Shown: one piece after another, positions 21,363 to 26,357 of the stretch | Numbering within the stretch: position 1 is the first letter of the stretch | Layout of the letters: each line of letters begins with the position of its first letter | NCBI GenBank assembly: GCA_963708115.1 | Contig: CAVPRX010000002.1 | Coordinates: forward strand, 452,092-516,091 | Direction: 5' to 3' | Source of the DNA: an uncultured Solirubrobacterales bacterium | Lineage (GTDB): Bacteria; Actinomycetota; Thermoleophilia; Solirubrobacterales; 70-9 | DNA length: 64,000 nucleotides | The notes under the pieces: model-generated | What the model was told of the DNA's origin: nothing | The model's database searches: none | Seen by the model: only the letters and a program-made list of their open reading frames with translations | Translations under genes and position numbers: made by a program

Positions 21363-23654
21363 TTGGAAACCGTGCGCCGGGTCACCTTCTCGAGGAACTA
21401 CACGCTCTCCCTCTCCCGCACCTGCCAGTGCTACTGCAAGTACTGCGCCTTCGCGACGCATAAAGCTCATATCTACGCCCCGGATGAGGTCGAGCAGCGT
21501 CTCGACGAGGCTGAACGCCGCAATGCCAAGGAGCTGCTCGTCCTCACCGGCGAGCGTCCCGAGGTCAACCCGGTCGTTGCCGACAAGCTGACCCGATGGG
21601 GTCACCCCGACTTCACGTCCTACGTCGTCTGGGCCTGCGAGAGGGCGCTGGAGCGCGGCATCCTGCCGCACACCAACATCGGCGTTCTCAGCTCTGACGA
21701 TCTAGCCCGCCTGCGAGAGGTCACCGCCTCCCAAGGCCTGATGCTCGAGTCCGTCTCGGAGCGCCTGATGGACACCGTCCATGCCGGCTCTCCGACCAAG
21801 CACCCGGCCCAGCGGCTGGCGACGATCGAGGCCGCCGGCGCGCTGAAGATCCCTTTTACCAGCGGAATCCTGGTTGGGATCGGCGAGACCGAGGAAGAGC
21901 AGGTCGAGTCGCTTGAAGCTCTGGCTGAGCTCCATCGCGAGTACGGCCATCTGCAGGAGGTCATCCTGCAGAACTTCGTGCCTCATCCGCGGTACTACGG
22001 GCAGGAGGTCGCCGAGATCGCGGATGTGGCTTCACGCTTGCGGTGGGGGGAGGACGGGGGTGCCCCTCCGCTTGCTGGGTTTTCCGCCAGTGGCGCTGGG
22101 TCTTCGTCCGCGGGCGCCGGTGGTGCGGAAAACAGGACGCCGCTGCGCGGAGGGGCACCCCCGTCCTCCCTGCCAGAGTGGGCTAGCCCCGTTGGCGTTG
22201 GGGATATCGAACGATTGATCCGTGAATGCAAACGGCTGATGCCGGATGTCGGGGTTCAGGTGCCGCCGAACCTGTCTGACGCGTGGGCTGAGCTGGTTGA
22301 GGCAGGAGCTACGGATCTCGGAGGGCTGTCGGCCAATGGGGACCACATCTCTCCCGAGCATGCGTTTCCCAGCCCGCATGAGGTTCGGAAGGGGCTGGCG
22401 CCCAAGGGGTACGCGCTGACTGAGCGGCTTTGCGTCTACCCGCAATACATGGACTCCGAGTGGATGGAGCAGGGGGTTCTGGACGTCATCAAGCTCAAGT
22501 ACTGGAGCTTCATTCCGCGGAAAGGCTCAGGGCGTCGCAATGACGAGACGATCGATTCGAGGCTGGCGCCGCGTGCGATTGAGAAAGGTCGCGACGGGTT
22601 CGAGCTGACGGAGGATGAGCTGACGGCGCTGTTTGCCGAGACGCGGCCTGAGGTGATTGAGGAGATGCGGAGCGCTGCTGATGAGCTTCGTGAGGAGCTG
22701 GCTGGGGAGCGGGCTACGTTCGTCGTGAACCGCAACATCAACTTCACCAACATCTGCGTCGTCGGTTGTGCGTTCTGCGGGTTCGGGCAGGGGAAGCGGT
22801 CGCCCGACGCTTATGAGGTCTCCGAGGAGGACTTCGCGGCGCGGATTCGGGAAGCGGTCGACTTCGGCGCTACCGAGCTCTGCATGCAGGGTGGCATCCA
22901 CCCGGACCTGACCCTGGAGGAGTACGGCAAGTGGCTGCGCCTGGCGAAGGACGTGGCGCCGCAGCTCCACCTGCACGCCTACTCGCCGATGGAGGTCCAC
23001 TACATGTGCGAGCGCTCGGGGAAGGAGCCCGGCGAGGTCTTCGAGTACCTGCTCGAGTGCGGGCTCGGCTCGACTCCGGGGACCGCGGCCGAGGTGCTCG
23101 ACGACGGGGTGCGCCAGCGCATCTCCCCTAACAAGCTGCCGGCGCAGCGCTGGGTGGAGATCGTCGAAGCCTCACACCGGGCCGGGCTGCGTTCGACCTC
23201 GACGGTGATGTTCGGCCACATCGAGGAGCCGCGCGAGCTTGCCCGCCACATGCAGGTGGTGCGTGCCCTGCAGGAGCGGACCGGCGGGATCACCGAGTTC
23301 GTGCCGCTCAGCTTCATCCCCTTCAACACGATGCTTGGGCGTACCCACGGCATCGAGGAGATCTCGGCGGGCGAGAACCTCAAGCACACCGCCGCTTTTC
23401 GCCTCGCCCTGGGGCGGACGATCCCCAACCTGCAGGCGAGCTGGGTGAAGATGGGCCTCGAGGCCGCAACCGAGGCGCTGCGCTGGGGGGTCAACGACCT
23501 CGGCGGCACGCTGATGGAGGAGAACATCTCCCGCATGGCCGGCTCCCAGCACGGCGTCCGGCTGGAGCCCGAGCAGCTGATCGAGGCGGCGCGCGCGGCC
23601 GGCCGCATTCCCGCTCAGCGCACGACGCTCTACGAGGTCGTCGAGACCTATTGA
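21363..23654 (+). CDS. fbiC: Bifunctional FO synthase (CofG+CofH fusion), F420 chromophore biosynthesis
   Basis: Two radical-SAM cores (CQCYCKYCAF and CVVGCAFCGF) in one 763-aa protein. This is the actinobacterial FbiC architecture. Confidence 0.9.
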   Translation: METVRRVTFSRNYTLSLSRTCQCYCKYCAFATHKAHIYAPDEVEQRLDEAERRNAKELLVLTGERPEVNPVVADKLTRWGHPDFTSYVVWACERALERGILPHTNIGVLSSDDLARLREVTASQGLMLESVSERLMDTVHAGSPTKHPAQRLATIEAAGALKIPFTSGILVGIGETEEEQVESLEALAELHREYGHLQEVILQNFVPHPRYYGQEVAEIADVASRLRWGEDGGAPPLAGFSASGAGSSSAGAGGAENRTPLRGGAPPSSLPEWASPVGVGDIERLIRECKRLMPDVGVQVPPNLSDAWAELVEAGATDLGGLSANGDHISPEHAFPSPHEVRKGLAPKGYALTERLCVYPQYMDSEWMEQGVLDVIKLKYWSFIPRKGSGRRNDETIDSRLAPRAIEKGRDGFELTEDELTALFAETRPEVIEEMRSAADELREELAGERATFVVNRNINFTNICVVGCAFCGFGQGKRSPDAYEVSEEDFAARIREAVDFGATELCMQGGIHPDLTLEEYGKWLRLAKDVAPQLHLHAYSPMEVHYMCERSGKEPGEVFEYLLECGLGSTPGTAAEVLDDGVRQRISPNKLPAQRWVEIVEASHRAGLRSTSTVMFGHIEEPRELARHMQVVRALQERTGGITEFVPLSFIPFNTMLGRTHGIEEISAGENLKHTAAFRLALGRTIPNLQASWVKMGLEAATEALRWGVNDLGGTLMEENISRMAGSQHGVRLEPEQLIEAARAAGRIPAQRTTLYEVVETY
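22048..22170. repeat. 123-nt palindromic element (24-bp perfect arms, 75-nt partly self-pairing loop) lying in frame inside the fbiC inter-domain linker
   Basis: GGGAGGACGGGGGTGCCCCTCCGC at 22048-22071 pairs with GCGGAGGGGCACCCCCGTCCTCCC at 22147-22170. The length is 41 codons and it encodes GEDGGAPPLAGFSASGAG...RGGAPPSS. Confidence 0.75.
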
Positions 23655-24572: not shown

Positions 24573-25562
24573 ATGCGGGCGATGGTCCTGGAGCGGCAGC
24601 GTGAGCCTCTGCGGCTTGCCGAGCTGCCCGATCCAGAGCCGGGGCCCGGCCAGGTTCTACTTTCGGTGGCTGCCTGCGGGGTCTGTCGCACCGATCTTCA
24701 CATCGTCGACGGTGAGCTCAGCGAGCCGAAGCTGCCGCTGGTGCCCGGGCACCAGATCGTCGGCACGGTTGCGGGGGTGGGGGAGGCCGCCGGGCGCTTC
24801 GCCCTGGGAGAGCGTGTCGGAGTGCCCTGGCTGGCCTGGGCCGACGGGACCTGCCGCTACTGCGTCAGCGGTCGCGAGAACCTCTGCGACCGCGCCCGTT
24901 TCACCGGCTATGACGTCGACGGCGGCTATGCCGAGCTCGCGCTCGCCGACGAGCGCTTCTGCTTCCCGATCCCGCCGAACCTGTCGGATGAGGAGGCGGC
25001 GCCGCTACTCTGCGCCGGGCTGATCGGCTACCGGGCGCTGCGCTTAGTTGGGGACGCGGAGCGGGTCGGCTTCTACGGCTTCGGCGCGTCCGCTCACATC
25101 CTTTGCCAGCTCGCGGTGCACCAGGGTCGGCGCGTCTTCGTCTTCACCCGCGAGGGCGACGAGGAGGGTCAGGAGTTCGCCCGCAGCCTCGGCGCCGAGT
25201 GGGCCGGCGCTTCGGGCGAGTCGCCTCCGGAGGAGCTCGACGGGGCGATCGTCTTTGCCCCGGTGGGGTCGCTGATGACCGAGGCCCTGCGGGTCAGCGC
25301 CAAGGGAGCGCGGATCGTCAGCGCCGGCATCCACATGAGCGACATCCCGTCCTTTCCCTACGAGCGGCTCTGGGGCGAGCGAACCCTGGGCTCAGTCGCC
25401 AACCTGACGCGGCTCGACGGCGAGGAGTTCCTCGATCTGGCACCGCAGGTACCGATCCGGACCGAGGTCGAGGTCCACCCGCTGGAGGCAGCCAACGAGG
25501 CGCTCGACTCGATCCGCGATGGCAGCTTGCGCGGGGCAGCCGTGCTGCGGCTAGCGAAATAG
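24573..25562 (+). CDS. Zinc-dependent alcohol dehydrogenase family protein
   Basis: AACGVCRTDLHIVDGE, GHQIVG and the structural-zinc CRYCVSGRENLC motif. Confidence 0.8.
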   Translation: MRAMVLERQREPLRLAELPDPEPGPGQVLLSVAACGVCRTDLHIVDGELSEPKLPLVPGHQIVGTVAGVGEAAGRFALGERVGVPWLAWADGTCRYCVSGRENLCDRARFTGYDVDGGYAELALADERFCFPIPPNLSDEEAAPLLCAGLIGYRALRLVGDAERVGFYGFGASAHILCQLAVHQGRRVFVFTREGDEEGQEFARSLGAEWAGASGESPPEELDGAIVFAPVGSLMTEALRVSAKGARIVSAGIHMSDIPSFPYERLWGERTLGSVANLTRLDGEEFLDLAPQVPIRTEVEVHPLEAANEALDSIRDGSLRGAAVLRLAK

Positions 25563-26357
25563 ATCCTCGTCGCGAGGACGGCGCATGGCGGCGGCGCCGG
25601 GGCCGTCGTCGGCACTGACGAAGCGCTCCAGGCCCCGGACGATGGCCGCCGGAACGCGGCTCGTCTTGTCGCGCACGAGGTCGGCCGCCGCCGCCGCCTC
25701 GTCGGCGACTGCGATCAGGGTTGCTTCAAGCTCACGGCCACCGGAGTCCGTGCGACCGCGCCAATCATCCAGCGGGGTGAGCCCCGCGCACCCGATTGCC
25801 ACCTCGACCTGGCCAAGTCGCCATGCGCGTCCGAAACTGTCGGAAATCACGACCGCGATGTCAGGGGGCCGGGGGTAGGGGTCGGCGGACACTCCATCTG
25901 ATCGTCCGCCGACCCCTACCCCCGGCCCCCCCACTATCTCGGCCCTGATACGGCGGGCCGAGGCGTCCGGGTTCTCGGGCAGCAACGAGACCGTGCCCTC
26001 CTCCGGCAGGTTGGAGGTGTCGATGCCGGCGTTGGCGCAGACGAAGCCGTGATGCGTCTCGACGATCAGCACGCCGCGCTCGGCCCGCAGCACCTCGCGG
26101 CTCTCGGCGAGGATCAGCTCGACCAGCGCCGGCTCCTTGCCGAGCACCGCGGCCAGCCGCCGGGCTTCACTGCCCGGGATCGCCGAGGAGAGCCGTCGGA
26201 CCCGGCCCTCGGCCTTGGAGACGATCTTCTGCGAGACGACGACGACGTCGCCGTCGAGCAGCTCCGCGCGCGCCCCGATCTCGGCCCCGATCGACGTTTG
26301 CGCGGAGAACTCGGGTAGGCCCGCGACGGGCACTACGCGCAGCTCGCCGGCGCTCAT
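25551..26357 (-). CDS. cofE: Coenzyme F420-0:L-glutamate ligase
   Basis: VVVVSQKIVSKAEGR, HGFVCANAGIDTSN and ISDSFGRAWRLGQVEVAIG are CofE/FbiB N-domain motifs. ATGA overlap with cofC. Confidence 0.8.
   Translation of the reverse strand: MSAGELRVVPVAGLPEFSAQTSIGAEIGARAELLDGDVVVVSQKIVSKAEGRVRRLSSAIPGSEARRLAAVLGKEPALVELILAESREVLRAERGVLIVETHHGFVCANAGIDTSNLPEEGTVSLLPENPDASARRIRAEIVGGPGVGVGGRSDGVSADPYPRPPDIAVVISDSFGRAWRLGQVEVAIGCAGLTPLDDWRGRTDSGGRELEATLIAVADEAAAAADLVRDKTSRVPAAIVRGLERFVSADDGPGAAAMRRPRDEDLFR
25864..25930. repeat. 67-nt perfect palindrome (27-bp arms, 13-nt loop) inside the cofE reading frame
   Basis: GGGGGCCGGGGGTAGGGGTCGGCGGAC pairs with GTCCGCCGACCCCTACCCCCGGCCCCC. It encodes GGPGVGVGGRSDGVSADPYPRPP between two conserved CofE blocks. 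Confidence 0.8.

Follow-up and report, generated by a model that had tools for sequence, protein, structure and literature searches.

Palindromic Repeats in Frame within cofE and Other Genes in a Genus of Uncultured Solirubrobacterales

Results

The stretch of DNA analysed here, referred to as the window, comprises 64,000 nucleotides (G000:C2:452092-516091). It belongs to a genome (G000) of 2.73 Mb with 67.7% G+C, which is assembled in two contigs and about 90% complete and whose relatives are uncultured Solirubrobacterales MAGs. Among the genes of the window is cofE, encoding F420-0:gamma-glutamyl ligase (positions 25551 to 26357, minus strand). Its open reading frame is intact, and the product of 268 amino acids matched PF01996 F420_ligase with an E value of 4.4e-60 and 203 bits (cut-off 25) and the structures PDB 7ULD/2PHN with an E value of ~1.5e-41. 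The PF01996 match was broken into two stretches by an insert. At this point the gene hosts a palindrome with a left arm of 27 nt (GGGGGCCGGGGGTAGGGGTCGGCGGAC, positions 25864 to 25890), a loop of 13 nt (ACTCCATCTGATC on the plus strand, 25891 to 25903), which is a variant of the family loop CTCCNYGCTGTT, and a right arm of 27 nt (GTCCGCCGACCCCTACCCCCGGCCCCC, 25904 to 25930) that is the perfect complement of the left arm (100% over 27 nt). The original prediction of a 67-nt perfect palindrome lying in frame in cofE was reproduced with respect to coordinates and pairing. Together, 23 codons (69 nt, 25863 to 25931, minus strand) specify the extra CofE loop GGPGVGVGGRSDGVSADPYPRPP, which is flanked by ...ARRIRAEIV and DIAVVISDSFGRAWR. 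The arms stand in codon register, so that their codons are mutual reverse complements (GGG/CCC, GTA/TAC, GTC/GAC, GGC/GCC, and GGA/TCC). As judged by loop polarity, the element of G000 is inverted relative to cofE.

The palindrome is not a product of chance. When the larger contig of 1.85 Mb was simulated by a first-order Markov model, no hairpin arm exceeded 17 nt, even with two mismatches allowed. The folding energy of the cofE element was -44.2 kcal/mol as DNA and -77.6 kcal/mol as RNA (z ~ -10 for both), and none of 200 shuffled sequences folded as well. The palindrome is real and is one copy of a small hairpin-forming repeat family that is confined to one uncultured soil-actinobacterial genus.

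The segment GGPGVGVGGRSDGVSADPYPRPP had been proposed to be extra relative to ordinary CofE and possibly to form a surface loop. Both points held on comparison with orthologues and solved structures and on inspection of a structural model. All eight CofE orthologues taken from other families of the order were devoid of the insert. The linker counts 32 residues (...AEIRAATGxxPAVIVSDSFGRAW) in these outgroups and in 67 of 147 distinct alleles examined, and 50 residues in G000. In the solved structures of A. fulgidus CofE, the site is a turn at which the helix ...RRRILELTGKR is followed by the strand VGVIITD with nothing extra between them. Conservation of the segment at the protein level in unrelated taxa was not seen, as outgroup and PDB CofE proteins lack it. 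An AlphaFold model of G000 CofE (mean pLDDT 78) placed a helix at residues 130-143, coil at 144-167 (pLDDT 47-59), and a strand at 168-174, i.e. the insert was modelled as low-confidence coil in a helix-to-strand surface turn. A translated, disordered, Gly/Pro-rich loop at this place would probably be tolerated by CofE.

The site was then compared across the genus, which is represented by 162 species genomes, 155 of them with cofE. The linker was taken from 188 loci, 147 of which were distinct. These alleles fell into 67 with the standard linker, 46 with a palindrome (PAL), 27 with a linker of 27-31 residues (SHORT), and 7 intermediates. The palindrome was present at the cofE site in ~45 species, and most species of the genus as well as all examined outgroups were without it. 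Arms of PAL alleles measured 20-31 nt, mostly with 0-2 mismatches, and their sequences varied from species to species. The frame was preserved in every cofE palindrome, that is in ~45 independent assemblies. PAL alleles were found in Illumina assemblies (MEGAHIT and SPAdes MAGs: L124, L144, L152, and L168) and in long-read assemblies. In several fragmented MAGs the contig breaks exactly at the cofE site, and the element family probably contributes to assembly breaks in the genus.

A cofE tree of 146 rows was calculated with the linker left out. It contained a clade of 44 alleles that were exclusively PAL or SHORT (support 98). G000 and G100 (both PAL) and G008 (SHORT) were nested elsewhere, in a clade otherwise made up of standard-linker alleles (support 95). 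Forcing all PAL and SHORT alleles into one clade cost 147.5 lnL units and gave a p-AU of 0.0013 for a group that was named after the tree had been seen; a single origin of these alleles was rejected on this basis. More than one gain or transfer of the element has occurred at cofE. The SHORT alleles vary in length and junction and keep the residues that flank the palindrome in relatives; the one of G008 retains CTCCCT of the right arm. By their sequence, SHORT linkers look like near-precise deletions that left a scar. From end to end, the G000 linker could be aligned with the linker of L027, a distant PAL allele, and there are flanking codons common to PAL alleles that are missing from their standard-linker sisters. 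According to the linker alignment, the event at the cofE site was a replacement and not a plain insertion. A recombination mosaic around the insert was considered and discarded, since 30-nt windows of identity put G000 nearer to its insert-less sisters on both sides. In the same windows, no imported tract longer than ~15 nt was detected around the G000 insert. The repeated appearance at cofE may be due to short-tract recombination or to re-insertion.

For an analysis of arm symmetry, 45 cofE elements and four other G000 copies were oriented by loop polarity and aligned (alignment A1), such that column i pairs with column 81-i. In the resulting helix of 30 pairs, 92.2% of the cells were paired, and changes on both sides were found in 26 of the 30 pairs (211 cells). 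The covariation score was 0.424 as compared to 0.125 after shuffling (reached in 0 of 500 trials), and slid controls gave 0.05-0.12. Of the 51 arm mismatches, 25 were C·C or G·G and 12 were A·C, whereas G·T accounted for only 4. In an RNA helix under selection, G·U pairs would be preferentially tolerated. Because arm changes were mirrored on both sides and G·T was not favoured, the symmetry is kept at the level of DNA. The element lay in one orientation relative to cofE in 25 cases and in the other in 20. At least 12 flips of orientation were counted on the cofE tree, a number near the shuffled expectation of 15. A C·C mismatch located six pairs from the loop (A1 columns 27/54) was present in 24 of 49 elements, and its polarity tracked that of the loop, showing that the whole core inverts and not the loop alone.

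Some further details of the stems and loops were noted. At independent loci, namely in the fbiC elements L218 and L253 and in the G162 orthologue of the copy at C2:709644, the stem is again mismatched at the position of the C·C mismatch, 6-7 pairs away from the loop. The inner-stem sequence CCGG is a potential C5-methylation site. In the cofE elements L045, L049, L060, and L067 it was changed to CCAG/CTGG on both arms by a mirrored transition. A 16-nt loop, ACTCAGCGCGAAGCGC (L012, L035, and others), holds a mini-hairpin GCGC-GAA-GCGC, for which L124 has GCCC-GAA-GGGC, a compensated change.

Divergence was very unevenly distributed within the element. Between species, p at fourfold-degenerate sites was ~0.49 across cofE and 0.60-0.61 (saturated) in the codons adjoining the insert. 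Within the element, p was 0.38 in the outer arm, 0.22-0.25 in the inner stem, and 0.10-0.13 in the mid-arm. For the type-A loop it was as low as 0.064 over 28 species and both orientations, which encode QKRGV or HSPLL. Hence, the core is constrained as nucleic acid, and coding cannot account for the conservation of the loop. As evident from the adjoining codons, fourfold divergence showed no dip near the insert among PAL alleles, indicating that the alleles are old; a recent sweep and homing with co-conversion were dismissed for the same reason. Something constrains or refreshes the core, and this speaks more than any other finding against an insert that is purely passive.

A covariance model (R1) built from the element alignment matched six loci of G000: cofE, window positions 14488-14559, C2:709641, C2:361890, C1:228944, and C1:1438798. 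Of 109 genomes of the genus, 102 had a match, and in some the number of loci reached about 15-20. R1 had no match in any of 32 sister-genus genomes and gave one weak case in 120 other genomes sampled from the order. The unit of the family is GC-rich and consists of arms of ~27 nt and a loop of 11-13 nt, adding up to ~66-69 nt or 22-23 codons. From locus to locus the loop stays conserved (AACAGCGGGGAG or AAAGCGGGGAG, or the complement of either), and each locus has arms of its own. Loop types recur: the 16-nt loop of the intergenic G000 copy at C2:361890 equals the cofE loop of six other species, and the 24-nt loop of the copy at C1:1438800 resembles the cofE loop of L152. The other G000 copies are syntenic in close relatives, and arm changes were mirrored there as well, including at orthologous intergenic copies. 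Contigs were observed to end at element copies (G035:C73, G071:C37, and G045:C82) or to start at them (G012:C67, G088:C112, and G051:C94).

The intergenic family member of the window (14488 to 14559) has perfect 27-nt arms (14491-14556) and a 12-nt loop, CTTCACGGCTGT. It is flanked by a divergent GCV_T/YgfZ-like gene and a gene with a Tat signal, an arrangement that is syntenic in G100, G168, and G008. The geometry shared with the cofE palindrome had been pointed out at the outset, and the cofE-derived model R1 recognized this copy with 59.2 bits. From in-frame palindromes in two F420 genes of the window, a family of small mobile hairpins had been postulated. A dispersed family is indeed present, with six loci in G000, up to ~20 in relatives, and filled as well as empty sites; what speaks for mobility is this distribution. 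The site at C2:709644 is empty in G008 and G168, where a stop codon directly precedes the ribosome-binding site of the next gene; in this single comparison of filled and empty sites, a repeat of TA or TTA at most was apparent. The copy lies within the 11 nt that separate the stop codon from the next start. The ribosome-binding site reads GGAG at the empty site and GACAG in genomes with the element. PF01797 (Y1/RAYT) was absent from G000, with controls positive, and so was PF07282 (TnpB). A search for a parent insertion sequence bounded by the arms revealed no pair of arm motifs spaced 150-6000 nt apart in G000 (about 90% complete). As no transposase, parent element, or clear target-site duplication was found, the evidence for mobility is indirect. 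A phage origin was rejected, as the exact core pattern had 0 matches in viral contigs. Membership in a known RNA family was rejected too, because Rfam 15 returned only generic miRNA-precursor hairpins with 20-42 bits against gathering scores of 55-120.

Genome-wide, G000 contains other hairpin families, for example at C1:285414, C1:1475836, and C2:625570. In one, about 15 copies combine a conserved 18-nt loop, CGGACGGGTGAGTCCGCT, with G-rich arms that are hypervariable and end in GTT; further families have the arms GCCGACGGGCCTCAAAGTG, CGAGACCGCAAAAACCC, and CGCGGTCGAGGTTTG.

A second palindrome of the window lies in frame in the linker between CofG and CofH of fbiC (22048 to 22170, plus strand). 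It has perfect arms of 24 nt, GGGAGGACGGGGGTGCCCCTCCGC, and a loop of 75 nt. R1 did not match it, i.e. it is related but distinct. When the fbiC linker was examined in 38 species of the genus (loci L215-L254), 37 were found to have a palindrome there, whatever their cofE state, and several of these palindromes showed an architecture of the R1 type. Their arms measured 18-30 nt and varied between species, and their loops measured 12-14, 23, 50-53, 63, or 75-79 nt. Some fbiC linkers contain two elements. As judged from the encoded peptides, an inner hairpin, GTTTTCCGC/GCGGAAAAC, appears to be common to the elements with a 75-nt loop, which would then constitute a second family.

The original prediction had drawn attention to in-frame palindromes in two F420 genes of one window. 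These were confirmed for cofE and fbiC. A special link to F420 genes did not hold up, since related palindromes are in frame in at least seven other G000 genes; the gene beside the copy at 14491 is of the GCV_T/YgfZ type (Pfam) and bears no relation to F420. In-frame palindromes with G-rich arms in G000 reside in genes for BirA-like, Lhr-like, PabA-PabB-like, PyrK-PyrD, NuoG-like, CCG-domain, and membrane proteins. Their positions are C1:1261875 (membrane protein), C1:1400646 (BirA-like), C1:1438800 (CCG-domain oxidoreductase), C1:1513275 (NuoG-like), C1:1647817 (Lhr-like helicase), and C2:404235 (PabA-PabB-like). The element at C1:946259, upstream of a SurE-like start, was listed as in frame and is probably non-coding. 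Among 24 R1 copies sampled outside cofE in five other genomes, at least 7 were in frame in open reading frames. The in-frame counts are lower bounds, because the GC3-based coding classifier misses fbiC even in its loosened version.

Outside the window, a palindrome with 28-nt arms and a 45-nt loop bridges pyrK and pyrD of G000 (C2:784828-784928) in one frame without a stop codon. When this junction was compared (loci L284 and L286-L308), a stop codon and a change of frame were found in the outgroups and in seven species of the genus. The frame was continuous in six palindrome-bearing species and in two with a non-palindromic remnant. On comparison of these sequences, pyrK-pyrD looks like an element-mediated gene fusion.

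Discussion

The explanation that we favour, with a probability of about 0.7, is that the cofE insert belongs to a genus-specific, GC-rich hairpin repeat, an RPE-like "coding palindrome," that is translated as part of a CofE surface turn and whose evolution is that of a DNA palindrome. The element would be selfish or near-neutral DNA without effect on CofE, and it would persist in genes only as a harmless insert that is in frame, free of stop codons, and flexible. A change in one arm would be copied to the other by hairpin-templated correction, either quasipalindrome template switching or inter-arm gene conversion, and in this way the arms would drift yet remain complementary. Recombination between the arms would invert the whole core, and slippage across the hairpin base would delete the element, giving rise to a shortened linker. 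Quasipalindrome template switching predicts symmetry of the Watson-Crick kind only, changes that are mirrored between the arms, inversion, and deletion at the base of the hairpin (PMC7202029), and the pattern found here matches this prediction. Two findings are at odds with this explanation. The C·C mismatch is still present in 24 of 49 elements, although efficient correction would be expected to eliminate it. Furthermore, divergence is low in the loop (0.064) and in the mid-arm (0.10) as compared to 0.60 at fourfold sites, whereas a decaying insert should lose its loop.

A second, more tentative explanation treats the core (loop CTCCCCGCTKTT, inner stem CCGGAC/GTCCGG, and the fixed C·C) as a signal under selection at the level of DNA, which would be recognized in the form of a hairpin, cruciform, or duplex by a recombinase of its own or by a host factor. 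Use of the site would then be what preserves the cofE copy, with the coding loop as a by-product; this overlaps with the favoured explanation and adds a present-day function. The contrast between loop and flanking fourfold sites (0.064 as compared to 0.60-0.61) without a synonymous dip, and hence without a recent sweep, fits such a signal. So do the conservation of the loop in both orientations although the peptides differ (QKRGV or HSPLL), the recurrence of the same loop types across loci and species on arms that are particular to each locus, and the polarity of the C·C mismatch tracking the orientation of the loop; independence of orientation is in accord with recognition of DNA. However, no candidate protein was identified, the element was lost in many species with no obvious consequence (27 SHORT alleles and the empty site), copies are few and occupy mixed positions (in genes and at their 5' and 3' ends), and gene conversion among copies could produce part of the conservation. 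It is conceivable, at similarly modest odds, that loop, inner stem, and C·C are the recognition site of a hairpin-specific DNA enzyme active in the genus, and that the element represents a new kind of minimal mobile element. If this is true, its only "cargo" would be a translatable linker. Such an element would maintain the symmetry of its locus-specific arms, exchange loop types among loci, and invert without restriction; it could also join adjacent genes, as at pyrK-pyrD.

A role of the hairpin at the level of the cofE mRNA, for instance as an RNase III site, stabiliser, or ribosome pause that tunes CofE expression, is improbable. A perfect RNA helix of 27 bp with -77.6 kcal/mol is a strong structure within a message, and fbiC, the second F420 gene of the window, also carries an in-frame palindrome; yet G·U was not favoured over true mismatches (4 G·T as compared to 12 A·C), and with at least 12 flips of orientation the loop in the mRNA alternates between a sequence and its complement. 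Moreover, the same family occurs in intergenic DNA and in unrelated genes, and the cofE element is missing from most species of the genus and from all examined outgroups. Equally little credit can be given to the idea that the insert provides CofE with an adaptive loop and that selection acts on its peptide. The insert is in frame and stop-free in ~45 species, and the arm-encoded motifs GVG and HP recur, but the peptide is highly variable between species, its central residues differ with orientation, and no arm can change without a non-synonymous change in its partner. The segment was modelled as low-confidence coil and has been lost repeatedly, and the conservation of third codon positions in the loop is not explained by selection on the peptide. 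The chance that the palindrome is an artefact of long-read assembly is negligible. G000 does appear to be a two-contig MAG of the long-read type, and fragmented assemblies break at the cofE site. Against this stand homologous palindromes with different arms at the same codon position in ~45 independent assemblies, including Illumina MEGAHIT/SPAdes assemblies, and the frame that is always preserved; contig breaks are to be expected from a multi-copy palindrome.

A literature search revealed no description of such palindromic repeats for Solirubrobacterales. The closest counterparts are RPE-1 to RPE-10 of Rickettsia (Ogata et al. 2000, via PMC10969869), which are summarised there as short palindromic repeats, many of them in frame in housekeeping genes. 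Several traits are shared. Palindromic repeats are dispersed within one genus, here in 102 of 109 genomes with 6 to ~20 loci each. A large share is in frame in unrelated genes at positions compatible with the protein fold, here in cofE, in at least 7 of 24 copies, and in more G000 genes. No transposase is known, and orthologous copies are retained across species. Differences are seen as well. The host here is a free-living actinobacterium with 68% G+C, whereas Rickettsia is an AT-rich obligate intracellular alphaproteobacterium, and the elements here, at 66-69 nt, are half the size of the ~100-150 bp given for RPEs. RPE families are described there as encoding a conserved peptide, whereas here the arm-encoded residues vary and the loop peptide differs with orientation. 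In addition, the arms are near-perfect and locus-specific with the loop as the conserved part, and both orientations occur at one site. By analogy, the solirubrobacterial family may be said to work like RPEs without being filed as a member; given host, G+C content, and size, homology is unlikely.

Other known systems are less similar. REP/REPIN-RAYT elements are also small GC-rich hairpin repeats with maintained stem pairing that often lie at gene ends, but G000 has no Y1/RAYT gene, copies number 6-20 and not hundreds, many are intragenic and translated, and a conserved 5' tetranucleotide was not seen. MITEs (e.g. Coxiella QMITE1, PMC5896051; PMC10969869) are non-autonomous inverted repeats that are read through and add residues to host proteins. 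Their tips, however, are conserved, transposase-bound, and associated with target-site duplications, whereas here conservation is lowest in the outer arm (p = 0.38), and neither a parent IS nor a clear duplication was found. PARCELs (PMC2996958) are palindromic coding repeats translatable on either strand, but they are tandem intragenic modules of amphipathic surface proteins, in contrast to the single dispersed hairpins in enzyme loops described here. Quasipalindrome template switching has been studied with E. coli thyA and lacZ reporters (PMC7202029) as a laboratory mutational hotspot at which imperfect inverted repeats are converted to perfect ones. The mirrored Watson-Crick changes of the present elements are exactly as expected from it, and for these elements we infer it from 45 diverged natural alleles; the conserved loop and the persistent C·C mismatch are left unexplained by it.

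For the annotation of Solirubrobacterales MAGs, the family accounts for odd Gly/Pro-rich inserts and probably for contig breaks. The cofE site, a single orthologous position at which a palindrome has drifted, been inverted, and been deleted in ~45 species, provides an unusually clean natural data set. With it, one can test whether it is template-switch correction or selection that preserves perfect palindromes in vivo, and why the conservation of the loop goes far beyond neutral expectation. The same applies to the question whether new protein linkers and gene fusions arise from such elements, and pyrK-pyrD suggests that they do. If our favoured explanation is correct, selfish DNA inside protein-coding genes, which is best known from Rickettsia, would also exist in abundant free-living soil actinobacteria.
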